A stretch of DNA of 32,000 nucleotides. Source: Feifaniaceae bacterium. GTDB lineage: Bacteria; Bacillota; Clostridia; Oscillospirales; Feifaniaceae. Positions 3,452-15,793 of this stretch are shown in pieces. The notes under the pieces were generated by a model. The model ran no database searches. It was given only the letters and a program-made list of their open reading frames with translations, and had not been told where the DNA came from. A program made the position numbers and the translations under genes. Where the stretch lies: contig JAZQEF010000018.1 of NCBI GenBank assembly GCA_045538835.1, positions 320,659 through 352,658 of the forward strand, in the 5' to 3' direction. The number at the start of each line of letters is the position of its first letter. The stretch's first letter is position 1.

Positions 3452-3769
3452 ATGTCATCAAATGCTTTCCGTCGTTCACTCAGCGGCTTTAATCGCAAAG
3501 ACGTAGTTGAATATATCGCTGTTTTAAGCAAACGTCTTGATTCATCCGCATCGAAGTATAATGAATTAAAGAAAAAATATGACGAACTTGCAAATAAAGA
3601 CATTGTTGATACAGATGTTTTAAATGCAAAGATTTCCTCTCTCAAATCAGAAAATGACGAACTTCGCAAAGCCCTCAGCGAACTTGAGGAAGAGGCTTCA
3701 ACCTTACGTTTCAAAGTGGAAACTGCAAGAATAAAGCTTGCTGAAGCAGAGAAAAAACTATCAAAATAA
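3452..3769 (+). CDS. DivIVA-domain coiled-coil protein
   Basis: MSSNAFRRSLSGFNRKDVVEYIAVLSKRL has the F-x-x-x-x-x-G-(F/Y)-N-x-x-(D/E)-V-x-x-(Y/F) signature of DivIVA N-terminal domains. A heptad-rich Glu/Lys coiled coil follows. GGAGAA RBS precedes the ATG at 3452. Confidence 0.7.
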   Translation: MSSNAFRRSLSGFNRKDVVEYIAVLSKRLDSSASKYNELKKKYDELANKDIVDTDVLNAKISSLKSENDELRKALSELEEEASTLRFKVETARIKLAEAEKKLSK

Positions 3770-3793
3770 ACGGCGGAAAATTTTCCGCCGTTT
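3768..3793. terminator. Bidirectional terminator between convergent genes
   Basis: Perfect palindrome aaacggcggaaaa/ttttccgccgttt with A/T runs on both sides. Confidence 0.8.
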
Positions 3794-3795
3794 AT

Positions 3796-4545
3796 TTATA
3801 TCAATTCAAGATGTTTCATTGCAAGATAAATGCCGTCATTTTCCACCCTTTGCGTCACATAGTCGGCATACTTGTCAACGCTCGGGCACTTGCCCATCGT
3901 TACGGCGTATCCTGCCGCATGTATCATTGCAAGGTCATTTGCCGAATCGCCGAATGCGATACAGTCGTCAAGCGTAAGCCCGTAGTGCTTAGCAACTACT
4001 TCCATTCCCGTTGCTTTTGAATAACCTTTAGGAACATTTTCGTATATATTTTCGCCTTCACGGTCGATCACTTCAAAATGCTCACCGACATATTGCAATA
4101 TTTCATCATCGACATTGACATAATACATTGCGAATTTGTCAAAAACAAAGTCATCTGCATATATGTCTATCGCATCTCCGTTATTTAAATCTGTTGTTAT
4201 ACCGTCAACACATTTTATGGTGCGTTTTGAAGCTTCGAACATACAGGAAATATTTTTTTCGATAAGTTTTTTTGCCAATTCAAGACAGAATTCATGCGGC
4301 AGGGCATTGTGTGAAACTGACTTTCCCTCAATGATAACTTCCGTACCGCAACCGCAGACATATCCGTCAAAACCGATCTTACGGTGAACATCTCTGATAA
4401 AAGAGTTGCATCTGCCTGTATTTATAAATGCCTTATGCCCGTTTTCCCTCGCCTGTTTTATCGCATCATATGTACTCTGCGCAATATAATGGCTGCCGTC
4501 GTCAGTCATAAGCGTGCCATCTATGTCAAAAAACAGAAGTTTCAT
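3796..4545 (-). CDS. Cof-type HAD-IIB family hydrolase (sugar-phosphatase-like)
   Basis: MKLLFFDIDGTLM (HAD motif I), ..INTGR.. (motif II), ..AFGDSANDLAMI (motif IV), with a cap insert of Cof type. Confidence 0.85.
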   Translation of the reverse strand: MKLLFFDIDGTLMTDDGSHYIAQSTYDAIKQARENGHKAFINTGRCNSFIRDVHRKIGFDGYVCGCGTEVIIEGKSVSHNALPHEFCLELAKKLIEKNISCMFEASKRTIKCVDGITTDLNNGDAIDIYADDFVFDKFAMYYVNVDDEILQYVGEHFEVIDREGENIYENVPKGYSKATGMEVVAKHYGLTLDDCIAFGDSANDLAMIHAAGYAVTMGKCPSVDKYADYVTQRVENDGIYLAMKHLELI

Positions 4546-5066: not shown

Positions 5067-5095
5067 TTGACAAATTATACTAAAGTTGTTATTAT
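5067..5095 (+). promoter_or_regulatory. Putative sigma-A promoter of tRNA-Ser
   Basis: TTGACA (5067-5072), a 17-nt spacer, then TATTAT (5090-5095), about 15 nt upstream of the tRNA 5' end. Confidence 0.55.
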
Positions 5096-5110: not shown

Positions 5111-5202
5111 GGAGATGTCGCGTAGTTGGTCGAGCGCGCACGATTGGAAATCGTGTAACCGTCAAAAGCGGTTCGAGGGTTCGAATCTCTCCATCTCCGC
5201 CA
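5111..5202 (+). tRNA. tRNA-Ser (anticodon GGA), long variable arm
   Basis: GGAGATGTCGCGTAGTTGGTCGAGCGCGCACGATTGGAAATCGTGTAACCGTCAAAAGCGGTTCGAGGGTTCGAATCTCTCCATCTCCGCCA. The acceptor stem is GGAGATG/CATCTCC, the anticodon stem is CACGA/TCGTG, and the loop is TTGGAAA. A class II variable arm is present and CCA is encoded. Confidence 0.92.
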
Positions 5203-5207
5203 TAAAA
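5186..5207 (+). repeat. attL-like copy of the 22-bp direct repeat (within intact tRNA-Ser)
   Basis: TCTCTCCATCTCCGCCATAAAA, identical to 15739-15760. The flanking bases differ on both sides. Confidence 0.85.
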
Positions 5208-5252
5208 TAACCTCTAAGCCCCTATTCATAAGGGTTTCGGGGTTATTTTTTT
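5207..5252 (+). terminator. Island-encoded replacement terminator for tRNA-Ser
   Basis: A 15-bp stem ataacctctaagccc / gggtttcggggttat (one mismatch, two G-U pairs), followed by a T7 run. Confidence 0.65.
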
Positions 5253-5325
5253 ATTCCTATTCACAACTTTGTCAAAATGAAGAAATGCACAAAAATACAT
5301 AAAATTACGCAAATAATCAAAAAAG

Positions 5326-5347
5326 TAGGGTCAAAATTAGGGTCAAA
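5326..5347 (+). repeat. Tandem 10-bp direct repeat TAGGGTCAAA x2 (2-nt spacer)
   Basis: tagggtcaaa at tagggtcaaa, read directly. It lies about 120 bp inside the left island boundary. Confidence 0.6.
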
Positions 5348-5376
5348 CAAAAAAGTCTCCAAACGGAGACCTTTTT
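5347..5376 (-). terminator. Terminator after the orphan gene fragment
   Basis: Hairpin gtctcc/aaac/ggagac, flanked by an A-run and a T-run (bidirectional shape). Confidence 0.6.
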
Positions 5377-5377
5377 A

Positions 5378-5566
5378 TTATCTATACGGATTATTTTCTG
5401 CCTTCCAGTTCTTGTTGACACTCTGCCACAATATTGCTTTATCTTGTCTTGATAAGCCTGTAAGATTTCGAATTGCCGCCGTAGCCTCTTCTTGAGTATA
5501 AGTTCCATACTTGCCAGATTCTGTAGGTCTGTCGTATTTATCAAGTGCAACTATGCCACCATTTTT
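5378..5566 (-). pseudogene. Start-less C-terminal gene fragment (62 codons plus stop)
   Basis: My own translation of a frame not reported in the track: KNGGIVALDKYDRPTESGKYGTYTQEEATAAIRNLTGLSRQDKAILWQSVNKNWKAENNPYR*. There is an in-frame stop at 5567-5569 and no ATG/GTG/TTG until codon 48. It is bracketed by terminators. Confidence 0.5.
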
Positions 5567-5580
5567 TCAATACCAAAAGC

Positions 5581-5606
5581 AAAAAAAGAACCTCGATTGA
5601 GGTTCC
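5581..5606 (-). terminator. Rho-independent terminator of the 141-aa membrane-protein gene
   Basis: On the minus strand: gaacctc/aatc/gaggttc followed by TTTTTTT. It lies immediately after the stop at 5609-5611. Confidence 0.75.
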
Positions 5607-5608
5607 TT

Positions 5609-6034
5609 TTAAAATACGTTGATGGTTGCTATGTTGCTGATATGTAAGACCATAAGAACAAACACGGCTATATAGGTGGCAGCAAAAGAGACTGTTCCCC
5701 CATAATAGAATTCTTCTTCATACTTTGGATGATAATAACTGTCTAATATCCGTTTATCCTTTCTATGAAGGAAGTAATACAGGCACATCATAAACAGGAA
5801 TACACAAGCAGAAGGAATTAGCCCAATAAACCACCATAACAGGATATACAGGAAGATGGAAGCAATTAGGCTAAGAGGGTCTCCAGTGTTCTGATTATGG
5901 ACGTAGTGAAAATACAGGGTATCGTTAGTAGTGCTGTTCAGAAGAATACAAGCCACGACAACAAAAACCAAGACTAATACAGCCACGGTAATGATAATCT
6001 TGTTCTTTTGGATGCTTCTTTCTTCGTCAGTCAT
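5609..6034 (-). CDS. Orphan small integral membrane protein (141 aa, about 4 predicted TM helices)
   Basis: AAGGAG RBS 7 nt before the ATG. Hydrophobic stretches are IIITVAVLVLVFVVVACILL, LSLIASIFLYILLWWFIGLI, PSACVFLFMMCLYYFL and VSFAATYIAVFVLMVLHI. No family recognised. Confidence 0.6.
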   Translation of the reverse strand: MTDEERSIQKNKIIITVAVLVLVFVVVACILLNSTTNDTLYFHYVHNQNTGDPLSLIASIFLYILLWWFIGLIPSACVFLFMMCLYYFLHRKDKRILDSYYHPKYEEEFYYGGTVSFAATYIAVFVLMVLHISNIATINVF

Positions 6035-6062
6035 TTCGATACTCCTTCTTGCTGATAGGATT

Positions 6063-6091
6063 ATTATAGCAGATAGGTCATTATCTTACAA
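6063..6091 (-). promoter_or_regulatory. Putative sigma-A promoter of the 141-aa gene
   Basis: On the minus strand: TTGTAA (6091-6086), a 17-nt spacer, then TATAAT (6068-6063). It sits between the giant-ORF terminator and the RBS. Confidence 0.55.
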
Positions 6092-6110
6092 CATTAAACT
6101 TCTTACGGTA

Positions 6111-6140
6111 ATAAAAGACTCCCTAATTAAAGGGAGTCTT
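6111..6140 (-). terminator. Hairpin terminator after the giant ORF
   Basis: Perfect 10-bp stem aagactccct/agggagtctt with a 6-nt loop, 7 nt after the stop. The U-tract (TTATT) is weak. Confidence 0.55.
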
Positions 6141-6146
6141 TCTCTT

Positions 6147-9100
6147 TTAATTACCGAAATACCTGATGTAGTCGTAGTCATCTTTTACGGTGGGGTATTC
6201 TGTGCCAAGTAAGAATAAGTATTCCTTGTGGCTATCACAAACAGAATAGAGATACCGTTCAATCTTTTTTCTTCTGCTACCGTTAATTGCTTTTCCGTTT
6301 TTGTAGTCGGGTTTGATACCACTCATATCTACGACTGCCGTCATAAACAATTCAGCATCAATGCCGTATTTTTCTGCTTCAACTGCTGCCTCGCTGTCAT
6401 ACATTGACAAATACATTTTCCAAGTCTCAGAATTATTTTGAGCCATATCAAGTATTATATCTACTACTTCCGACTTAGAAATCTTTCCGTCATTGTCTTC
6501 TTTAGCACCACTAACTTGAGCCCTAAATGAAATATAATTTTCAGCATCCTTACCGAAATCATCGGCTTTTTTTACCCAACTATCAGGTTTGTAATTGCTG
6601 ATGGCTTTCTTTGCTTTTTGGTTCGCATAGTCATACGCTTCATTAACGGCTTTTACTTTCTCTTCGTCAGAGAGTTTTTTATACGTTTTACTCTTCACCA
6701 ATTCAGATACTAATTTATAAGATTTTTCGCCCTTCAGTGTCGCATATCTCACATACTCATCTGCCGTCAGGTCTTTACGTACTCCATCAACCGTGAAATA
6801 CTTGCCTGCTCTTGAAGGAAACACCCCGCTTTCTCCTGTTTTGTTATAGAGACACAAGAGTTCTTCTTCCATTTTACTTGTTTCAATGTTAGATGTATAA
6901 GCAGGATTAAGGAAGTTGTTAAATCCTCTCTTAAGAGCATTACCCGATGCTTCTTTTCTTCCCCAAGCATCAATGTACGGAATTTGCTGATAATCCCAAA
7001 ACGGAATTTTCGCACTCATCTTACCGAGAGTATATTGCATATCTCCTGTTAAGAAATCGTTTTTTTCGGTGTAGGTTGTCATTCTGTGTGATTCACCTGT
7101 ACGCTCCGCTTGCCCAAAAAGCGTCGGCAAACCTTGTGTAAAGTAACTTGTTACTGCACTTGATAAGACTGCGACTAATCCAGATGTGTCATTGGATGAA
7201 GCGTAGCCTATACCCTCAACTATATCATTCACACCTTGCAAGCAAGACATTTCGAGCATAGGTTCGCTTATACGGGTTATTGATTGAAGAATACTTGAAA
7301 GGGTTACTTTTCCTTTAGAGCCTTTTTTTGACTCCCAAAGGTTAACCCCCACAAAGAAAGGTAATGCTTCGGGAGCAAGCCAGTCTAATGTAATTGATTG
7401 ACCGTTGGGCAGTTCAAGCGAATAAGCCTGGTGCCCCATTAACTCCTTAAACTCCTTTTCCTCATCATCTTCACCATGTCCTCTTACAAGTCCTTGTGCC
7501 GCATAATATACCCCAAGAGCCAAAAGTCCCGTGCCTGTTAATCCGGCAGAAATGTTGTCAATGGCTTCGGTTGCTGTCATTTTACCCTTGCCCACTTGAA
7601 CAAGGTCATAACTCAAACTTTTCAGAAGTCCCAAAGGACTGTATTCAACACCTCTTACTAGGATGTTTGCAGGTGTTTTACGGAATGGCAAAATTCCTTC
7701 AATCGCCATGCTTCCAACTTTTGTCCAAGGATTTTTCTTGTTTCCGCTTCTTCCCAACTCACTTACAAATTGAGAGAATGCATTTGTATCTCTGTATGTT
7801 GCCTTTTGAGCTTCCTTGATTGCATATTCTCTTGCAGGGGCAATTGCCTTGCCTCTGCTAATCTGTTCAGGCGTTATATTGTGAGCCTTACAATACTGTG
7901 CTAATGCATAAGCATAGTGAGGTTTCGAGAACCACATATCCTCCTCTTCAAGAAGATCACTGTTTTTCTTTCTTGACCACTCAAAAGGTCTAAATTTAAA
8001 TATTTGTCTGCCCTCTTCTATATGCCGATTTGCCATTGCGAAATCGTTATATTTACCGTCGTTTGATATAAGCTCGGCAACGTTGGCATAGTCATTCCAC
8101 GCTGCCTTTAACAAAGCCCTGTCGGTCTTGCTACCCCAAACCAAAGCCTTTCCTCGCAGCATTTTTTTACCGCCCAGATGATAAACAGCAGACTCTATTG
8201 CCGTAGCAGTCAAATTCTTTGTAGCGACAATAGGAGCAAAGCCGGCATTACCGAAAACGTTTCTGACGTGTGTACGAAGATTACCAAGCATCGCAAGGTA
8301 TCTCCAAGCATTCCACTTGTCAACGAAGCGAGATGGCATTTGTCTACCGATATCTTTGTAGATTTCCTTTTCAATCTCCGCTCGTTCTTCTTCAGTTTGG
8401 GCTTTAAGGAATTGTTCCGCAAGGTCAGTATCAATCTTAATGTCAGGTGCTTTTTTACCGTACCTTTCGGTCAATTCCTTTTTGAATGCTTCTACACTTT
8501 TCTGCACTCCGTATAACTGCGTTTCAGGCGAAAGTTTTTTCAATATCCTTGTGGCCTGTAATGCTTGTGCGGCACTGCGCTGATGTCTTACCATTGCGTC
8601 AAGAATCATAATTGCGTTTTTTGTATCTTTGCTATTTGCGGCGTGATTGTACAATATCCATCCCTTTGTAGTAAGTTCTTTCGATACCTCGCCTTTTTCT
8701 ACAGCACGAAACCAATCATCAAGGCTTTCATCCCAGCCGTGCTCTTTAATACGAGAATCTGCATCTGCTATTGCCTGTTTATCCGTATAAACGTCATAAG
8801 AGAAAATACCGTCCTCGACCATCTTCTCAATAGTGGGTACCGCTTCATCGGGCGTTGCCTTTGCTTCAAGAATAGTGCGGACTGTCTGTGATACTTTTTT
8901 GTCTTTTGATGTTTTTCGGGGTACTTGTATGTCTCTGTGTGGCTTTTCACCGCTTGGAATAGCACCGTACTTCTCAACAAGCTCCGAAAGTCTTGTCCCT
9001 GCAATGCTTTTTTTACCCTCTTGTGCATTTTCTGCGGTATTTTGCATAGAATTAGTATTGACACTGGGATTATTTTGTGATATAGTGGTGTCAACAGATG

Positions 9101-12100
9101 AGGTTGTTCCTCCGTGTAAACTGTTATCAGTTTTAGACACGGTCTTGTTAGGGACAACCTCATCATTTTTTATTGAAATAAAATTCCCCTCGTTGTCTAC
9201 AATTTCATGCAGATAATATTCGCTTGTGTTTTTATTTTGGGTAACCACCACGCCTACAAATGCGTCTTCGTTGCCTATTTTTACTTTTCCTGCAAACACA
9301 TATGAGTCGTATGGTCTGCCCTTCCATTTTTCCTGATAATCAATTTGTTTTCCGTATTTGATTATATCTGGAACGGCTCGAAACGCAATACATTTGGCTC
9401 TTCCCATTTTATGTCCTATAGCACTTTTTATTCCGTCCTTATTGAGAATTACTTCGCCAAAATCAGCCCTATATACTTTATTCCCGAGCGAGTTAAAAAA
9501 AGTTCCTACTTGTTCAACTATATTCATGTTTCTGTCATTGAAAATATCCGTATTGAGAGATAATATGACGTCTTCCTTTGATAATTGTTCAAGATTACTT
9601 TGTATTTTTTTTATTAGGCTATTTTTTTGGAAACCTTTTTTTCTTCTTTGCTCGTCCGTTTCCTCGCTCCGCGTTTCGCCTTCCGCATTTCGCATTTGAG
9701 AAGTTCGCTTCTCATTGTAGTCTCCAACTTTACCCTCTTGTGCATTTTCTGCGGTATTTTGCATAGAATTAGTATTGACAGTGAGAATATCATTTGATAT
9801 GCTATTGTCAGTAGGAACTGTTGGTGACATCTCGTCACTAACCACAGCAAGTAAAGTCTGTGGGGCAGTTCCTTTAGAGGACAACTCGTCTATGTTAACG
9901 TCGGAGGTCTTTTGGACTGTATGGCTGATTCGAGTTGTCCTCTTATTTTTTTCTATAAATTCAAATGAATATTGATACTGTTCTTTTCCCTTATCTCTAA
10001 TATCAAAAACAACATCGTAAATTGAACCGTCTATCTCAACGGTATTTTCGAAATAATACCAATACTTTACATTTTTATGTGCTAAGTTCTTAGGCTTTAC
10101 ATTTACATCTGCATAACTTGGCTCAGTTCCCTTTCCGGTAAAGGTAGCATCACTGAGAATTTGTGCAATGTCATAAAGAGAATTAATTTTTGCATTCAAC
10201 TCTTCAGGCGAACTGTCACCTCCATATAGATTTTTTTGAACAGTAAATCTATCCCCTAAAATCTGTATCTTTTTTACATCAGTTTTTAGTTTTACGGCAC
10301 CTAGGTTAAATATTGTTGCAATTCTCTGCTTGAAAAGTTCTTGTTTTGTTTCAAAGTTCATTCCTTCCGGAAAATCTGTCACATATTTTTTTATTCCATT
10401 TTTTGTTTTTCCTACATACTTAAGCTTCTCACCGTTAAATTCTCCAACCTTGCCCTCTTTTACATTCTTTGCCGCAGCAGTGTAGGCTCTCAGCCACAGT
10501 TGCTGTGCTTTTTTCTTTTCGCTGAGAAGTCCCATACTTTCGAGCACATTGTACCACCAGTCACGCACACGGAGGGCAAGGCTCTTGTCCTCTCTGATAA
10601 AGCTTTCAAGCATTTCCTCACTGTCGAACAATTCGCCTGCATAATTTACCGCAATTTCCTCATTAATGTAAGCTGTATCGTCTTTTCCATAAGCGTTTTT
10701 CGTTTCCTCATAAAGAACATCATACGCCGTCCGTCCGTTGCCAAAGCTTTCCTTTTTCAGTTTGTTTATAACATATTCCTGATACGCCGCCCATACCTCT
10801 GGCGCCGCCTGTTTCATTCTGTGCCCAAATTCGTGTGTTGCAACAAAACGTGACGGATTTTTCGCATCGGCGTTTATAAATATGCCTTTGCTTGTTATAA
10901 GTCCTTCAAGAACTTTGCCGTTCTCGTCCGTAAGATCCTTAACAAAACGCACAGTCATTCCCAAACGTTTCGCCATTCGTACAATATTGCTATATGCTCT
11001 CGGATTTTCTCTTTTCAACCTCTTTGAATATTCATCAACAACAATATTATTTACAATTTCACTTCCTTCGGGAATATCATACCGCTCCGCTTCGTGTTCA
11101 GTTGACGATTGCTGTTCATTTTTTTTGTTTTCTCCGTCCAAAACTCCAGTGTGAACATCGTTTACACTCTCATTTTTGCTTGAGTTGCTTGCATCAGATT
11201 TTATTTCTGTAAACAATGCTTCAATCTGCGGTTTAATATTATCAACATCAGAGAATCGCTCAATGTATTCGAGCATATCCTCATTATGTTCATTGTTGAC
11301 AGCCTCTACAATCCCAATATACCAAGCGTAAAATTCTTCTGTGATTTCTTTTGAAAAAGAATCAATGTTAACATTGCGAACCTCGTATGAATAAAGTTCC
11401 CTGATAACAGAAACAAACTTTTCAAATGCTTCGCTCTCAACATCTACACCACTTGAAATAATATCAATCAACTTATAGTGTTGCATTGTTAACTTCGTAC
11501 TTATGCCACGTCTTAATGCATGAAATGCTTCGTGATAGGCTGTTTCTAAACCGTCAATATCCAAATCTGACGATATAAAAATTGTTAGAGTATCGCCTAT
11601 ACCGGCAGTCACGCCTTCCGTTGAGATTTCCGAAACGTCCTTATGGTTGGTATGTAGTTCTCCTTCAAACACAACAACAGTTAAGCCTAAACTTTCAATA
11701 TTTTCGGCGGCTGTTTTTGCCTCTTTACTCCACTTGCTTTTCGGAGCATATTTGTATCCAACAGAGAGTTTTCCTAAGCTTGCATACATGTATCCGTCGT
11801 TAAGTACACGCTCTTCAAACGCTTCTGCTGTTTCTGTTTGTTCTACTCTTGCCGTTCCTCTTCCTCTTCCATTGACGCCAGTATCGCTTCTCTCGACATA
11901 CGATTTGCGTAATATTTCCTTAATTTTTCTCGCAACCTGTTCTCTATTGCTGCCTTTTCTTCTGGCGACTTCTTCGCCCATTCCTCTTCGGCTTTCAGCA
12001 TTGCCGGTGTCGGAAATTGTTTCTTCTCTGACATTAGTGTTTTCCTCCTTAACTTTGTTATCTTCGGGCAATTTGTTATTTGCCGCAACTGTTTCCTCTG

Positions 12101-14495
12101 CATTGTTTGGGATGTATACCTCATTAATTGCCATAACTACGCCTGCTACGTTGCCGTCTGAATCAGTAACTTTTATTGCATAAGGTTTTCCTTTTACAAA
12201 TGCAGCGGAAAAATCATATCCCTCAAAGTATTGGGCATAATTTTTCTTAATAGCTATCTGTCTTCCGTCATCAGTAGTAAACACATAAACCCCGTTTATG
12301 CCCGGCAAATCCACCTCAACAGGATTTGTGCTTATCGGCACATACTCGTTATTGTTCGCTATTTCTTCAATAGTTTTTGCAATATTGCTGTTGTCCTCTA
12401 ATCCCCACTCTGATTTAGCGTATTCCACATCTGATTCCGCAATAGGAATTGCAATACTACCATCAGAAATATATGCCCTGCCGTCTATTGTTCCAACTAC
12501 TTTATGAAGTGATTCCTTGTCCAACACATTTCTTGTCTTATCGGTCATTTTGCCACTTACATTATATGTCTGATTTTGCTTACCGTCAATGTTTGTAACT
12601 TTCGACCTTTCATTCGGCATATTCTTGATATGCTCTAATCTCCCTGCATTATAGGCTTCTTCCTGTTCGGGAGTTACGAGATTAACCTTTTCTCTCGGAA
12701 CGTTCTGTCTACCTGCTTCAAATGCCGCCTCTGTTGCTTTCGCTTCTATGCTTTCAATTCCATTGGATAGTCCTAATCCACCCCCCAAATTGACATTTCC
12801 TGCTTCTTCCGTTATACTATTATTGAAAGCAGACGATGAGACAAGGGGCGTTTCGGACGTATGCTGAAGGCTGATATCAGCATTCGGCACTTGGCTACCA
12901 ACGTCTGCTTTTTCTATTCTTGCAGACGTTATCCATAGTGTTTTTCGTTTACTATCGGGCACTACCTGACTTACAACATAAGTTCCGTCTATTCGCTTTT
13001 TCATAATGAATACCGGAGCTGTTTTATTATGCCTGTCATTGTATTGTCTATCAAATACTCTGTTTCCCTGATTATCAACAGCCCATTCGATAGTATCGTA
13101 ATTATTTATTATATACCCTATTCTCGCTATATCTTTCGGGTCACTTAAAGATTGGTCATGTTGCCCGCTTATACCGTGTCTGTTTTCAATATGTATCAGA
13201 CGATCACGTTCGATTCTACAAGTATAATCACTTATATCGAATCCGACAAAATCACTGATTTTCTCTGCTGTGCTTTCACCAAGTTGTGCTACCTCTATAA
13301 CGTTGGGAACATTGTCTATATCGCCTTTTCTTATACTTGTAACAGCATCTTCAATTTCAGAATTAACCGAACCAAGAAAATCCTTCCCTACCTTTTCTTC
13401 ATCATATAGGTGTACATACTCATTTTCAGTATTCTGCGTAGCATTTCTCGCATTGACAACATCTATTGCCGCCTTTTCAAGTGTGTCTTGTTCTGTTATT
13501 TCTGAGGATATAGGCTGTTCTGTTTCCGTTTCGTTTACAAGCGGTTGTTCTGTCTTTGTTCCAATTCCTTCCTGTTCAGTGCCTAAAGAAGAAATGTCCC
13601 CCCTTTTTCCTTTGTTTCTGTTATTGATGACAGCCCTTGTTGTATTAATAGTTGTTGCAGGAACATTCATTGCACCAAATCCTATTAGCGATGTTGTTGT
13701 AGTTTCTCCTAAACGGTCTCTAATCTCATCGCCTGTATACAACCATTCACCTTTATCTATCCCATACGCAAGCATTTCGCCACCGATTGTAGCTACTTCC
13801 TGCAATACTTCTTCCGTTGTTTCAGCCGCTGTACTTTTTGTTCTCTTTAGAATTTCAGCTCCGATGATTTTCAGAATATCATCGGATGCACCATTTGTTA
13901 CACCATAAATATATGCGTCCATCAATTCGTCTAACTGCGAAGCTTCAAGAAGGCCGACAATTGTGCCAACTCCGTGGGAAACATTTCTCGCTACTTCATC
14001 TGAAACACCAAGTTCTTTTAGCGTTTCATATGTATGACCCGCACTCACCTCATATGTATTCAACGAGGCGCCTGCCGCATAAGCAGCACCTGCCGCTGCT
14101 GGAACAGTAAGAGCCTCTTCAGGCATAAGTACCTGTGGCCCCGCTTGTCCCGCCGCCGCCGCCATTCCTGCCGCCGCCGTAACCATACCTGCTGTTCTTA
14201 AATCTGTTGCATTGTACCATTGCTGTCCTATAAATTCGCCTATAAACTGCAATAGTTGTTTAGCTTTATTGTCAGTATATGTGTTGTAATCTGAAGATAA
14301 CAGTTCTTTGTAATATTCAGCCGAATTTTCTCTGCCTTCCATTGCCTCAAAGGACTCCTTGCCCGACTTCATATTATAATATCCTCTTTTTACAGCTCCT
14401 ATGGTTGAATCATACCAATTAGCTTCTCTTGAACCACTCTTAAGTCTCTCGAACTGTTTCGTTAGTTCCTCAACTTCTTTTTCTGCGACTTCCAT
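6147..14495 (-). CDS. Giant multidomain 'polyvalent'-type protein of a mobile element (2,782 aa from first ATG; probably 5'-truncated)
   Basis: A single 8,349-nt open frame. Recognisable pieces are a PBECR-like nuclease motif (RLIHIENRHG ... LWITSARIEK), HEAFH and HEFGH zincin motifs, tandem modules joined by identical linkers, and a Gly/Ala-rich hydrophobic N-terminal stretch. The frame stays open 52 codons upstream of the ATG with no alternative start, and GAGGA lies only 1 nt from the ATG. Confidence 0.7.
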   Translation of the reverse strand: MEVAEKEVEELTKQFERLKSGSREANWYDSTIGAVKRGYYNMKSGKESFEAMEGRENSAEYYKELLSSDYNTYTDNKAKQLLQFIGEFIGQQWYNATDLRTAGMVTAAAGMAAAAGQAGPQVLMPEEALTVPAAAGAAYAAGASLNTYEVSAGHTYETLKELGVSDEVARNVSHGVGTIVGLLEASQLDELMDAYIYGVTNGASDDILKIIGAEILKRTKSTAAETTEEVLQEVATIGGEMLAYGIDKGEWLYTGDEIRDRLGETTTTSLIGFGAMNVPATTINTTRAVINNRNKGKRGDISSLGTEQEGIGTKTEQPLVNETETEQPISSEITEQDTLEKAAIDVVNARNATQNTENEYVHLYDEEKVGKDFLGSVNSEIEDAVTSIRKGDIDNVPNVIEVAQLGESTAEKISDFVGFDISDYTCRIERDRLIHIENRHGISGQHDQSLSDPKDIARIGYIINNYDTIEWAVDNQGNRVFDRQYNDRHNKTAPVFIMKKRIDGTYVVSQVVPDSKRKTLWITSARIEKADVGSQVPNADISLQHTSETPLVSSSAFNNSITEEAGNVNLGGGLGLSNGIESIEAKATEAAFEAGRQNVPREKVNLVTPEQEEAYNAGRLEHIKNMPNERSKVTNIDGKQNQTYNVSGKMTDKTRNVLDKESLHKVVGTIDGRAYISDGSIAIPIAESDVEYAKSEWGLEDNSNIAKTIEEIANNNEYVPISTNPVEVDLPGINGVYVFTTDDGRQIAIKKNYAQYFEGYDFSAAFVKGKPYAIKVTDSDGNVAGVVMAINEVYIPNNAEETVAANNKLPEDNKVKEENTNVREETISDTGNAESRRGMGEEVARRKGSNREQVARKIKEILRKSYVERSDTGVNGRGRGTARVEQTETAEAFEERVLNDGYMYASLGKLSVGYKYAPKSKWSKEAKTAAENIESLGLTVVVFEGELHTNHKDVSEISTEGVTAGIGDTLTIFISSDLDIDGLETAYHEAFHALRRGISTKLTMQHYKLIDIISSGVDVESEAFEKFVSVIRELYSYEVRNVNIDSFSKEITEEFYAWYIGIVEAVNNEHNEDMLEYIERFSDVDNIKPQIEALFTEIKSDASNSSKNESVNDVHTGVLDGENKKNEQQSSTEHEAERYDIPEGSEIVNNIVVDEYSKRLKRENPRAYSNIVRMAKRLGMTVRFVKDLTDENGKVLEGLITSKGIFINADAKNPSRFVATHEFGHRMKQAAPEVWAAYQEYVINKLKKESFGNGRTAYDVLYEETKNAYGKDDTAYINEEIAVNYAGELFDSEEMLESFIREDKSLALRVRDWWYNVLESMGLLSEKKKAQQLWLRAYTAAAKNVKEGKVGEFNGEKLKYVGKTKNGIKKYVTDFPEGMNFETKQELFKQRIATIFNLGAVKLKTDVKKIQILGDRFTVQKNLYGGDSSPEELNAKINSLYDIAQILSDATFTGKGTEPSYADVNVKPKNLAHKNVKYWYYFENTVEIDGSIYDVVFDIRDKGKEQYQYSFEFIEKNKRTTRISHTVQKTSDVNIDELSSKGTAPQTLLAVVSDEMSPTVPTDNSISNDILTVNTNSMQNTAENAQEGKVGDYNEKRTSQMRNAEGETRSEETDEQRRKKGFQKNSLIKKIQSNLEQLSKEDVILSLNTDIFNDRNMNIVEQVGTFFNSLGNKVYRADFGEVILNKDGIKSAIGHKMGRAKCIAFRAVPDIIKYGKQIDYQEKWKGRPYDSYVFAGKVKIGNEDAFVGVVVTQNKNTSEYYLHEIVDNEGNFISIKNDEVVPNKTVSKTDNSLHGGTTSSVDTTISQNNPSVNTNSMQNTAENAQEGKKSIAGTRLSELVEKYGAIPSGEKPHRDIQVPRKTSKDKKVSQTVRTILEAKATPDEAVPTIEKMVEDGIFSYDVYTDKQAIADADSRIKEHGWDESLDDWFRAVEKGEVSKELTTKGWILYNHAANSKDTKNAIMILDAMVRHQRSAAQALQATRILKKLSPETQLYGVQKSVEAFKKELTERYGKKAPDIKIDTDLAEQFLKAQTEEERAEIEKEIYKDIGRQMPSRFVDKWNAWRYLAMLGNLRTHVRNVFGNAGFAPIVATKNLTATAIESAVYHLGGKKMLRGKALVWGSKTDRALLKAAWNDYANVAELISNDGKYNDFAMANRHIEEGRQIFKFRPFEWSRKKNSDLLEEEDMWFSKPHYAYALAQYCKAHNITPEQISRGKAIAPAREYAIKEAQKATYRDTNAFSQFVSELGRSGNKKNPWTKVGSMAIEGILPFRKTPANILVRGVEYSPLGLLKSLSYDLVQVGKGKMTATEAIDNISAGLTGTGLLALGVYYAAQGLVRGHGEDDEEKEFKELMGHQAYSLELPNGQSITLDWLAPEALPFFVGVNLWESKKGSKGKVTLSSILQSITRISEPMLEMSCLQGVNDIVEGIGYASSNDTSGLVAVLSSAVTSYFTQGLPTLFGQAERTGESHRMTTYTEKNDFLTGDMQYTLGKMSAKIPFWDYQQIPYIDAWGRKEASGNALKRGFNNFLNPAYTSNIETSKMEEELLCLYNKTGESGVFPSRAGKYFTVDGVRKDLTADEYVRYATLKGEKSYKLVSELVKSKTYKKLSDEEKVKAVNEAYDYANQKAKKAISNYKPDSWVKKADDFGKDAENYISFRAQVSGAKEDNDGKISKSEVVDIILDMAQNNSETWKMYLSMYDSEAAVEAEKYGIDAELFMTAVVDMSGIKPDYKNGKAINGSRRKKIERYLYSVCDSHKEYLFLLGTEYPTVKDDYDYIRYFGN
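9013..9063 (-). repeat. 51-bp perfect direct repeat, copy 2 (aa ~1811-1828)
   Basis: Identical 51-mer. The offset from copy 1 is 717 bp, which equals 239 codons, so the two copies are in frame. Confidence 0.9.
9730..9780 (-). repeat. 51-bp perfect direct repeat, copy 1 (linker ..VNTNSMQNTAENAQEGK.., aa ~1572-1589)
   Basis: ttaccctcttgtgcattttctgcggtattttgcatagaattagtattgaca is identical to 9013-9063. Confidence 0.9.
10821..10835 (-). other. HExxH motif 2 (HEFGH, aa 1221-1225)
   Basis: cac gaa ttt ggg cac read on the minus strand, in frame. Context is RFVATHEFGHRMKQAAPEVW. Confidence 0.6.
11520..11534 (-). other. HExxH motif 1 (HEAFH, aa 988-992)
   Basis: cac gaa gca ttt cat read on the minus strand, in frame with the giant ORF. 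Context is LETAYHEAFHALRRG. Confidence 0.6.
12891..13313 (-). other. PBECR-like (phage Barnase/EndoU/colicin-E5/D/RelE-like) nuclease module within the giant ORF (aa ~395-535)
   Basis: ..ISDYTCRIERDRLIHIENRHGISGQHDQSLSDPKDIARIGYIINNYDTIEW...APVFIMKKRIDGTYVVSQVVPDSKRKTLWITSARIEK. The pattern h-x-H-I-x-x-R-H-G, then a short helix, then beta strands ending h-T-(S/A)-h is what I recall for PBECR modules. Recognition is from memory only. Confidence 0.55.
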
Positions 14496-14597
14496 TTCCT
14501 CAGTAACGATAATGTCCGCATGTGCTCCTATAGGAACATGCGGTGTTTCTCTCGCCAGACGTTCACTTTCTTCCGCAAATCGTTTTTCATAATACTC

Positions 14598-15505
14598 GTT
14601 CTGTAGCTGACATTCTGCAAAAGCCTGAATACCTCGGTCACACAGTAAACTTCAAAACCTACAAAAAGTCATACAAGAGCAAAAAGAAAATGTGGAATGA
14701 CCCTTCTGATTGGCAAATTTTTGAGAATACGCACGAAGCGATAATTGATGAAGAAACTTTCCGCATCGTGCAACGAATCCGTGATGGCAGAAGAAAGGTC
14801 ACAAGGATGGGAGAAATGCCAATTCTCTCAGGTATGTTGTTCTGTGCTGATTGTGGAAAGAAATTATATCAAGTTCGCTGTACAACAATGAAGCAAAAGG
14901 AATATATGGTTTGCTCTACATATCGCAAGGTCAAAGGCGGATGCTCCTCACACCAAATACAGAATGAAACAATCGAGGCTTTGCTTCTTGACGGAATACG
15001 AAGTATTACAGCATTTGCAAGAAAACATGAAAATGAATTCGTAGAACTTGTTACAAAGAAATGCCGAGCAGATGTAGACAGAACTCTCCGTGATAGCAAA
15101 AGGGAACTTGAACAGGCACAGGCTCGTATCAAGAAACTCGATGAGATTATCCAAAGGCTTTATGATGACAACCTTGAAGGGAAGATTTCAGACGAGCGTT
15201 TCAGTAAAATGACCGCTAATTACGAAGCCAAACAACAAACTCTTGAAAGCCGGACACAGGAACTGAATGAGATAATTAATTCCGAGAAAGAAAATTCTCT
15301 TAATGCCGATAGGTTCTTGAAACTTGTGAGAAAGCACACGGACATTAAAGAACTCACGGCAGAAGTTCTCCGTGAGTTTGTAGAAAAAGTTTATGTGTAT
15401 CAAAGTGAGCGTGTTAATGGCAAAATGGTGCAACGCATCAAGATTATTTACAACTGCATAGGTGATTTCCAAACACCACCAACAGAATATGAAAAAACGG
15501 CATAG
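14598..15505 (+). pseudogene. Large serine recombinase, 5'-truncated (recombinase domain, zinc ribbon and coiled coil only)
   Basis: ..ADILQKPEYLGHTVNFKTYKKSYKSKKKMWNDPSDWQIFENTHEAIIDEETFRIVQRIRDGRRK..CADCGKKLYQ..MVCSTYRKVKGGCSSHQI..KKLDEIIQRLYDDNLEGKISDERFSKM. The N-terminal resolvase catalytic domain (active-site Ser) is absent. The track's GTG start at 14543 lies in sequence that is antisense to the giant ORF. Confidence 0.8.
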
Positions 15506-15623
15506 CCGATGTTGTTTTCGACTATGCCGATTATTTCCGGGATTAAAAATCCCTAAGTGAAGACACCAAATGGGGTGGTTTTTTATTTTTAGTTAAATCA
15601 AAGAGATTCGAACACTGAGAGGG

Positions 15624-15668
15624 CATTTTGCGTTAAGAAAACAATTAAGTATTGTTTTTAGCAAAATG
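15624..15668. repeat. Composite inverted repeat near the right island end
   Basis: cattttgc..aaaacaat / attgtttt..gcaaaatg. Two nested 8-bp arms surround a taagt centre. Confidence 0.5.
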
Positions 15669-15738
15669 TTGCGCAGTCCGTACCAAAGCCGTATGGCTTG
15701 GGTGGACAAGCAGTAAGGATTTGCCTTGCAAAGCCTTT

Positions 15739-15760
15739 TCTCTCCATCTCCGCCATAAAA
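15739..15760 (+). repeat. attR-like copy of the 22-bp direct repeat (tRNA-Ser 3' end without the rest of the tRNA)
   Basis: TCTCTCCATCTCCGCCATAAAA. No matching acceptor 5' strand (GGAGATG) lies upstream. Confidence 0.85.
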
Positions 15761-15761
15761 A

Positions 15762-15793
15762 AGAGTCCAGCATTATGACTGGACTCTTTTTTT
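15762..15793 (+). terminator. Probable native tRNA-Ser terminator, displaced by the island
   Basis: agagtccag/cattatga/ctggactct followed by T7, starting 2 nt after the right repeat. Confidence 0.7.

Follow-up and report, generated by a model that had tools for sequence, protein, structure and literature searches.

The locus examined here raises the question of which recombinase left a long direct repeat at the 3′ end of a transfer RNA (tRNA) gene. It lies in a 32,000-nucleotide (nt) stretch of DNA from a Feifaniaceae bacterium (GenBank assembly GCA_045538835.1, contig JAZQEF010000018.1, positions 320,659 to 352,658 of the forward strand), hereafter called the window, in which the end of tRNA-Ser(GGA) is repeated about 10.6 kb downstream and the recombinase encoded between the two copies is a remnant of a large serine recombinase. 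A reading of the letters made without database searches (the sequence-only reading) had taken the interval to be a single bounded island and had offered two explanations for this pairing, either a serine recombinase that uses a tRNA attachment (att) site or the loss of an original tyrosine integrase. On balance, we think that the interval, 5208-15738, probably contains what is left of two or more mobile elements that lodged behind tRNA-Ser(GGA), and that the integrase lost from it was of the tyrosine type.

The two boundaries are marked by the following features.

5067-5095, plus strand: promoter-like site of the tRNA-Ser gene (TTGACA, 17-nt spacer, TATTAT, upstream TG; 11 of 12 matches), 16 nt before the tRNA start
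5111-5202, plus strand: tRNA-Ser(GGA), on the attB/attL side (ARAGORN and Rfam)
5186-5207, plus strand: left copy of the 22-base-pair (bp) repeat, exact match
5204-5249, plus strand: tRNA-terminating hairpin and T-run from the inserted DNA (inverted repeat I1), unlike the hairpin at 15757-15792
15739-15760, plus strand: right (orphan) copy of the 22-bp repeat, exact match
15757-15792, plus strand: perfect 14-bp hairpin and T-run (inverted repeat I3)

The 22-mer TCTCTCCATCTCCGCCATAAAA occurs exactly twice in the window, both times on the plus strand, and a chance origin of the repeat is ruled out by shuffled sequence, in which no match is expected even at three mismatches. The left copy is made up of the final 17 nt of an intact tRNA-Ser(GGA) (54.6 bits for the Rfam tRNA model) and 5 nt more (TAAAA), while no tRNA body was found upstream of the right copy by ARAGORN or Rfam; the tRNA 3′ end is duplicated at both boundaries of the interval, with the whole tRNA on one side only, and the bases flanking the copies are unlike (A...T at left, T...A at right). 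These observations bear out what the sequence-only reading had described, and so do the two hairpins that it had reported as distinct terminators. The arms of the right hairpin (15757-15770 and 15779-15792) are 100% complementary, those of the left one (5204-5225 and 5228-5249) 82%, and a T-run follows each; a simple terminator scan leaves both out because the T-run is absorbed into the stem. The right hairpin is probably the native terminator of tRNA-Ser, by analogy with the loci L024 and L026, where the terminator after orphan copies is the one that follows intact tRNAs in sister genomes. The flanks of the window carry housekeeping genes of a Firmicute of about 40% GC (phosphoglycerate mutase, HAD hydrolase, MurQ, M20 peptidase and others), and the open reading frames (ORFs) of the interval comprise a hydrophobic one of 141 amino acids (aa), one of 2,782 aa with LPD3 and PBECR3 domains, and one of 320 aa that is the C-terminal part of a recombinase. 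Together this supports the view that the 22-bp repeat is a duplication of the tRNA 3′ end such as site-specific integration leaves behind, and that the interval is mobile DNA.

The recombinase was compared with its relatives in order to place its own element with respect to the repeat. Two features belong to it.

14594-15505, plus strand: remainder of a TnpX-like large serine recombinase gene, its 3′ part, coding for residues 249-551 of 551 without the catalytic domain
15506-15597, plus strand: terminal non-coding sequence of the recombinase element (51 conserved nt, then a terminator hairpin)

In the 320-aa ORF, Pfam identifies Zn_ribbon_recom, DUF4368 and part of the Recombinase domain (model positions 42-102) but no Resolvase (catalytic) domain; in line with the sequence-only reading, the only recombinase is a remnant of a large serine recombinase. 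The fragment corresponds to residues 249-551 of the 551-aa relative P0001 with 94.7% identity; full-length 551-aa relatives are 94-95% identical to it, and for four close relatives the nucleotide identity is 89-91%. In these four contigs (L028, L029, L030 and L031) the intact recombinase is the last gene of a small element, in the order helix-turn-helix (HTH) protein, D5-type primase-helicase, three small ORFs, capsid-like protein, TnpW and recombinase. The elements occupy differing, non-tRNA sites: the host genes beyond the recombinase differ between genomes and do not include a tRNA, and none of the four contexts is at tRNA-Ser. They look like satellites of about 8-10 kb, with a D5_N/DUF5906 primase-helicase, a Phage_capsid-like protein, TnpW, an HTH protein, a DUF4368 recombinase and restriction-modification cargo at the left. 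DNA homology between the window and these elements begins abruptly at 14594-14607, passes the stop codon, and ends at 15557 against L030 and L031, at 15587 against L029 and at 15597 against L028, which puts the element terminus 142-182 nt before the right repeat (starting at 15739). This shortfall argues that the recombinase did not make the repeat. As judged from these alignments, a second and unrelated mobile element brought in the serine recombinase, which as a bystander had no part in making the repeat, and the idea that it used the tRNA as an att site does not hold up, given the element ends, the non-tRNA sites of the four relatives and the viral survey that follows.

The 22-mer in full has no match in viral contigs because its TAAAA tail is too specific, and the 19-mer core AATCTCTCCATCTCCGCCA is found in at least 120 of them, mostly 30-46 kb in length and some with the core at both ends. 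Seventy of these 120 loci encode a homolog of the L034 tyrosine integrase at a distance of 20-900 nt from the core, in two geometries, and PF00589 was confirmed by Pfam in four representative integrases. A homolog of the window's serine recombinase accompanies the core in none of the 120. In cellular genomes the 22-mer is present in 27 representatives, nearly all of them Oscillospiraceae or Ruminococcaceae, and orphan copies recur behind tRNA-Ser. One locus, L004 (1942-2107, minus strand), carries a 144-nt tandem duplication that holds the 22-mer, the terminator and about 30 nt more. The characterised case of a tyrosine integrase that acts on the end of a tRNA-Ser gene is phage mv4, with a 17-bp core and paired 11-bp arm sites. 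In Faecalibacterium, elements are known to enter specifically at the tRNA-Ser 3′ end, and composite structures (tandems and nested elements) and integrase-less remnants are described as common (PMC12084326).

The larger part of the interval, adjoining the tRNA, holds these features.

5321-5347, plus strand: tandem 12-nt repeat pair AAAAGTAGGGTC / AAAATTAGGGTC, in which TAGGGTCAAA occurs twice, at 114-137 nt beyond the core; candidate arm-type sites
5347-5518, minus strand: polyvalent-gene remnant, the last ~55 codons and a terminator (5355-5370), with 68-74% nucleotide identity to the 3′ ends in L032, L033, L034, L195 and L196
5609-6034, minus strand: 141-aa hydrophobic ORF with a sub-threshold BrkB-like match
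6147-14495, minus strand: open, 5′-truncated gene for a 2,782-aa phage polyvalent protein (Pfam LPD3 and PBECR3; relatives in phages and prophages)
14529-14593, no strand: putative deletion junction, at which the 5′-truncated polyvalent and recombinase genes meet head to head, placed by the limits of homology

Residue 1 of the polyvalent protein aligns to residues 180-323 of eight relatives; as the preceding residues are absent by comparison with all eight, the gene is 5′-truncated, and its DNA homology extends to about 14528. The relatives lie on contigs of about 40 kb, several of them labelled Caudoviricetes. In the prophages L032 (contig JAZRPB010000033.1) and L033 (contig JAZMWV010000044.1) the polyvalent gene is the final phage gene, after capsid, amidase and holin genes, and in L033 a convergent tRNA lies beyond it in the same geometry as in the window. 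L034 shows the order lysis genes, polyvalent gene, two ORFs, attP, tyrosine integrase and M78/HTH switch, and its attP carries a tRNA 3′-end mimic with tandem AAGTAGTCAAA repeats on both sides, 103-135 nt from the core. The polyvalent 3′ end of related phages normally abuts an att site. By likeness to these L034 repeats and to the paired 11-bp sites of mv4, the pair at 5321-5347 is a candidate for the arm-type sites of a tyrosine integrase. Taken together, the core, the left-arm repeats and the viral survey make the tyrosine type the best supported one for the lost integrase. The loss of an original tyrosine integrase, the second of the two explanations offered by the sequence-only reading, fits best with a core to which many phages attach by tyrosine integrases and with a left arm that appears to be phage DNA with arm-type-like repeats.

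Two observations on the polyvalent sequences stand on their own. The scrap at 5347-5518 is a second, orphan polyvalent C-terminus, lying between the 141-aa ORF and the tRNA, so the locus saw either recombination between related prophages or a succession of them. In addition, the 8.3-kb frame at 6147-14495 (minus strand) is still open inside an otherwise wrecked prophage, which points either to a recent deletion or to retention by the host; host genomes do retain polyvalent genes from integrated prophages, and hosts may keep captured ones (Iyer et al. 2017, PMC5512222).

The history that we favour would combine these parts as follows. The stretch from 5208 to about 14530 (about 9.3 kb) would be the att-proximal end of a temperate tailed phage, with an att arm, the polyvalent scrap, the membrane ORF and the truncated polyvalent (injected effector) gene. 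The stretch from 14594 to about 15595 (about 1 kb) would be the 3′ half of the TnpX-like recombinase gene with the terminus of its own small element, which when intact would span 8-10 kb with primase-helicase, capsid-like protein, TnpW and recombinase. As both genes are truncated at the 5′ end and face each other head to head, one deletion would account for both truncations and would have removed the phage interior together with the integrase. The single deletion, the order of events and the tyrosine nature of the lost integrase are what we infer from these remains, and they replace the single bounded island of the sequence-only reading with at least two truncated elements fused by deletion. 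The repeat itself would have arisen in the manner of the many gut-Firmicute phages whose tyrosine integrases use its core, with integration regenerating the tRNA end and leaving an orphan copy behind. That orphan copy would be either the phage's own attR or an earlier copy left downstream when the phage integrated (tandem accretion), and we lean slightly to the earlier copy.

Several results weigh against this history. Searches of the 32 kb with ten integrases (tblastn) and of the island ORFs with Pfam found no tyrosine integrase, and no remnant of a tyrosine-integrase C-terminus was seen between 15506 and 15738. The comparison of base composition with the flanks that the sequence-only reading had proposed sets nothing apart, since the interval is indistinguishable from them in GC and tetranucleotide composition. 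The number of TAGGGTCAAA repeats is by itself statistically unremarkable, and there is none near the right copy. No empty-site or intact-prophage allele was found in the collections: exact-protein look-ups with three flanking genes and P0241 returned no other strain, a metagenome scan with the sequence that joins the repeat to its right flank gave neither empty nor occupied alleles, and the island had no megablast match in phage and plasmid collections. In the collections its own genome, as a 353-kb contig, is the sole representative of the species; the nearest relative shares 77% identity with it and shows no conserved synteny around murQ. If the DNA comes from a metagenome-assembled genome, the junction at 14529-14593 could also be a chimeric join made in assembly. 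Finally, in the closest viral relatives of the giant gene, L195/L196 (78% nucleotide identity) and L197, the integrase slot is occupied by a serine integrase, so this phage lineage swaps integrase types; these enzymes are 22% identical to the window recombinase family and are without DUF4368.

The serine integrases of these phages open another account, in which the window's serine recombinase is the polyvalent phage's own integrase and inserted the phage between tRNA-Ser and an older copy of the core by a 2-bp crossover that left no repeat, followed by one internal deletion. This needs the fewest events, and it would explain why the polyvalent end and the recombinase 3′ end lie at opposite junctions, as would be expected from the arrangement in L196 and L197. 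A recombinase without a long duplication would also suit L177, where 2.7 kb of cargo fill precisely the space from the tRNA CCA to a downstream unit and no core copy has been added. We nevertheless judge this account improbable, as all four close relatives (89-91% at the nucleotide level) are found in the small primase/capsid-like/TnpW elements, which lack the polyvalent gene and are not at a tRNA, as the serine integrases of L196 and L197 come from another family (22% identity, no DUF4368), and as the left arm bears paired repeats of the tyrosine type. In both phages the phage-type serine integrase gene (L196:12965-14353 and L197:12554-13969, both minus strand) and the polyvalent gene are in convergent orientation. 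In L196 an imperfect palindrome, CTATTGGTA...TACCAACAATAG, separates their stop codons at 12857-12964 and is a candidate serine-integrase attP.

The origin of the right copy was approached through the sequence that leads up to it, which resembles a recurrent unit of other genomes.

15603-15755, plus strand: module-like stretch that opens with the 5′ motif GAGATTCGAAC, is predicted to form three hairpins and has the same 3′ end as tRNA-Ser (fold z = -4.6)
Modules elsewhere: L026:2289-2444 and 3689-3846; L024:566-756, minus strand; L008:2601-2740, minus strand; L159-L194, for example L177:3976-4114, minus strand

At 15603, GAGATTCGAAC is the reverse complement of the T-loop and the 3′ strand of the T-stem of the tRNA, and it opens 153 nt that end in the right copy. 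In other Oscillospiraceae, modules located about 47 nt downstream of tRNA-Ser begin with the same motif and again end in a copy of the tRNA 3′ end of their own. The window stretch fits the layout of these modules, which consists of the 5′ motif GAGATTCGAA, 80-155 nt of hairpins, the 3′ end TCTCTCCATCTCCGCCA and a terminator in front, and by our own estimate the chance of meeting an exact 10-mer at the expected distance is roughly 1e-4. With the covariance model R1 (21 modules) and filters off, the best match on 15603-15755 scores 9.5 bits (E 0.5), against 80-160 bits for true members. Membership of the window stretch in the family is therefore not demonstrated, and the case for it consists of motif, spacing, core and fold.

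The family itself is well defined. A metagenome scan yielded 36 further modules with a modal length of 124 nt, 17 of which have tRNA-Ser(GGA) directly upstream. The modules, of about 125-155 nt in Oscillospiraceae and rumen metagenomes, are closed by a helix of GGAGAGATTCG and CGAATCTCTCC, keep the conserved loop TCCCCCGCAAG and have the tail ATCTCCGCCA; their fold comprises this closing helix and three hairpins, with 38 pairs, 17 of which show compensatory changes. In the alignment, 97.6% of cells are paired, compared with 85.5% in shuffles and 35-53% with slid partners; G.U cells exceed A.C cells by 33 to 5, which indicates that the structured strand is the one co-oriented with the tRNA. Neither 15600-15760 nor the canonical modules match Rfam, no module was detected in ~0.85-1 Mb of viral loci bearing the same core (three signature scans, regular expression and covariance model), and a literature search found no published account of a tRNA-linked structured element. 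A tRNA pseudogene or tmRNA-like gene was considered and rejected, as the modules have no local T-arm and give no tRNA or tmRNA prediction.

Modules also occur in arrays, and sister genomes in genera other than that of the window hold module-free and module-bearing alleles side by side. The allele L177 differs from L172 by the 2.7-kb EcoRV-type restriction-modification cargo, placed exactly after the tRNA CCA and ahead of the terminator-module unit without a third copy of the core; the L177 insert (oriented coordinates 7837-10551; 2,715 bp) encodes an EcoRV-type endonuclease and a D12 methyltransferase without a recombinase, and has short GGTGTACTTTT repeats at its right end. In L026, a GNAT gene is the integrase-less cargo. 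Two further observations concern insertions at modules: in L019 (reverse strand, oriented ~6930-7250) a module is broken by a MITE-like insert of about 200 nt with inverted ends GGTAAACGATGAT/ATCATCGTTTACC and a duplicated ACCTTG, and in L163 (1093-2532), likewise in L180, an IS4-like DDE transposase gene ends directly before a module without an adjacent tRNA.

The locus L183 (300-1982, minus strand) shows how such a unit behaves next to an integrating element, as it contains a tyrosine integrase, TTTTCCCACT arm repeats, an orphan core, a terminator, a complete module and a second core. It is a direct example of tandem accretion at the tRNA-Ser site. From this layout it follows that the module is a separate resident unit, which stays downstream when an element integrates at the tRNA; the possibility that the module is the P arm of an integrase element was rejected on the same ground, the two being separate in L183. 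By analogy, the right copy in the window may predate the phage. Of the integration footprint described in the sequence-only reading, the duplication of the tRNA 3′ end stands, but the right copy may belong to such a separate resident unit and not be the attR of the present content.

The opposite view is that the right 22-mer is the phage's own attR and the 140 nt to its left the P arm, the small element having hit the integrase gene or the P arm before a deletion that reached up to the polyvalent gene. A perfect 22-bp repeat that reaches 5 nt past the tRNA is most simply read in this way. The view also agrees with 17 viral loci whose tyrosine integrase, on the plus strand and to the left of the core, stops 44-151 nt short of it, so that the end of the recombinase element, at 142-182 nt, falls where the integrase 3′ end would be. 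The 140 nt in question are, however, without TAGGGTCAAA, whereas the arm repeats of L034 and L183 lie 50-150 nt from their cores; the stretch instead opens with GAGATTCGAAC at a distance typical of the resident module family, and such an arm appears in no viral contig scanned. We regard an own attR as an unlikely origin of the right copy, though one to be kept in view.

The module family can also be given a larger role. In a tentative reading that we consider about as doubtful, the right repeat would be the 3′ end of a diverged member of this undescribed family of ~125-155-nt modules, either a tRNA-linked RNA or a folded site for an integrase acting in trans, with the closing helix built from T-arm and acceptor sequence of tRNA-Ser, foreign genes lodging between modules and tRNA, and the island as DNA accumulated there. 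Going further, the interval would be cargo in a tRNA-Ser-linked cassette site, the module being a folded recombination site (or an RNA) served by a trans-acting integrase. The strong covariation and the strand bias of 33 G.U to 5 A.C would suit this, as would the presence of modules in some sister genomes and their absence from others, the arrays, and the integrase-less cargo found between tRNA and module or between modules (the EcoRV-type pair of L177 and the GNAT gene of L026). We hold it to be very improbable for the window, whose stretch goes unrecognised by the covariance model and whose cargo is plainly phage and transposon-like wreckage with no cassette gene; accretion beside the module in L183 is of the ordinary integrase-mediated kind, and a module-specific recombinase was looked for and none was found.

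With the serine recombinase set aside as a bystander, the apparent anomaly of the locus dissolves. There is no sign of a large serine recombinase using a long tRNA identity block, and the window appears to hold an ordinary mobile-DNA graveyard at an attB popular with tyrosine integrases. The lesson is that a direct repeat with a sole recombinase between its copies can mislead when elements are nested, tandem or deleted. A by-product that may matter more is a strongly covarying element outside Rfam, tied to the tRNA-Ser(GGA) hot spot of rumen and gut Oscillospiraceae. If the module is indeed a recombination site or a functional RNA, this would explain why integrase-less cargo gathers there.

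Among known systems, mv4-type phages, whose heterobivalent tyrosine integrases act at tRNA 3′ ends, resemble what the favoured history proposes for the window. In both, the core equals the 3′ end of tRNA-Ser (17 bp in mv4; 17 nt plus 5 nt in the window), the tRNA end is regenerated, an orphan copy is left, and arm sites, in the window only candidate ones, come as adjacent pairs of direct repeats. The window differs in having no integrase, a prophage that is mostly deleted and a right arm without arm repeats, and mv4, a Lactobacillus phage, has another host and targets another tRNA-Ser gene there. The recombinase fragment belongs to what we take to be the Tn4451/Tn5397-type TnpX/TndX family, an assignment that its TnpW neighbour in the relatives and its DUF4368 domain fit. 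It shares the Recombinase, Zn-ribbon and DUF4368 domains of that type, and in its relatives the recombinase likewise comes last, after TnpW, at variable sites. Instead of resistance genes, those relatives have a D5-type primase-helicase gene and a capsid-like one, and from the window copy the catalytic domain and all else of the element are missing. Integron attC sites and the folded attP of the CTX phage offer analogies, though solely for the module family. Like these, the modules seem to keep structure over sequence and have inverted-repeat ends, one favoured strand, and arrays with single-gene cargo; they differ in that no dedicated integrase was found for them, in their tRNA-end target and in forming a four-way junction instead of a hairpin, and an RNA function is equally possible.

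The giant gene agrees with the polyvalent proteins (Iyer et al. 2017, PMC5512222) in encoding a giant multidomain protein with LPD3 and PBECR3, with a late-gene phage context in its relatives; the window copy differs in being 5′-truncated and orphaned from its phage, and most of its length has no Pfam match. For the locus as a whole, the counterparts are the composites, tandems, 'matryoshkas' and CIMEs of Faecalibacterium (PMC12084326). Those remnants derive from ICEs and IMEs, whereas the larger piece in the window appears to be a phage end without conjugation genes. In both cases, att-flanked remnants without an integrase lie at tRNA-Ser, with pieces of several elements side by side and signs of tandem accretion.

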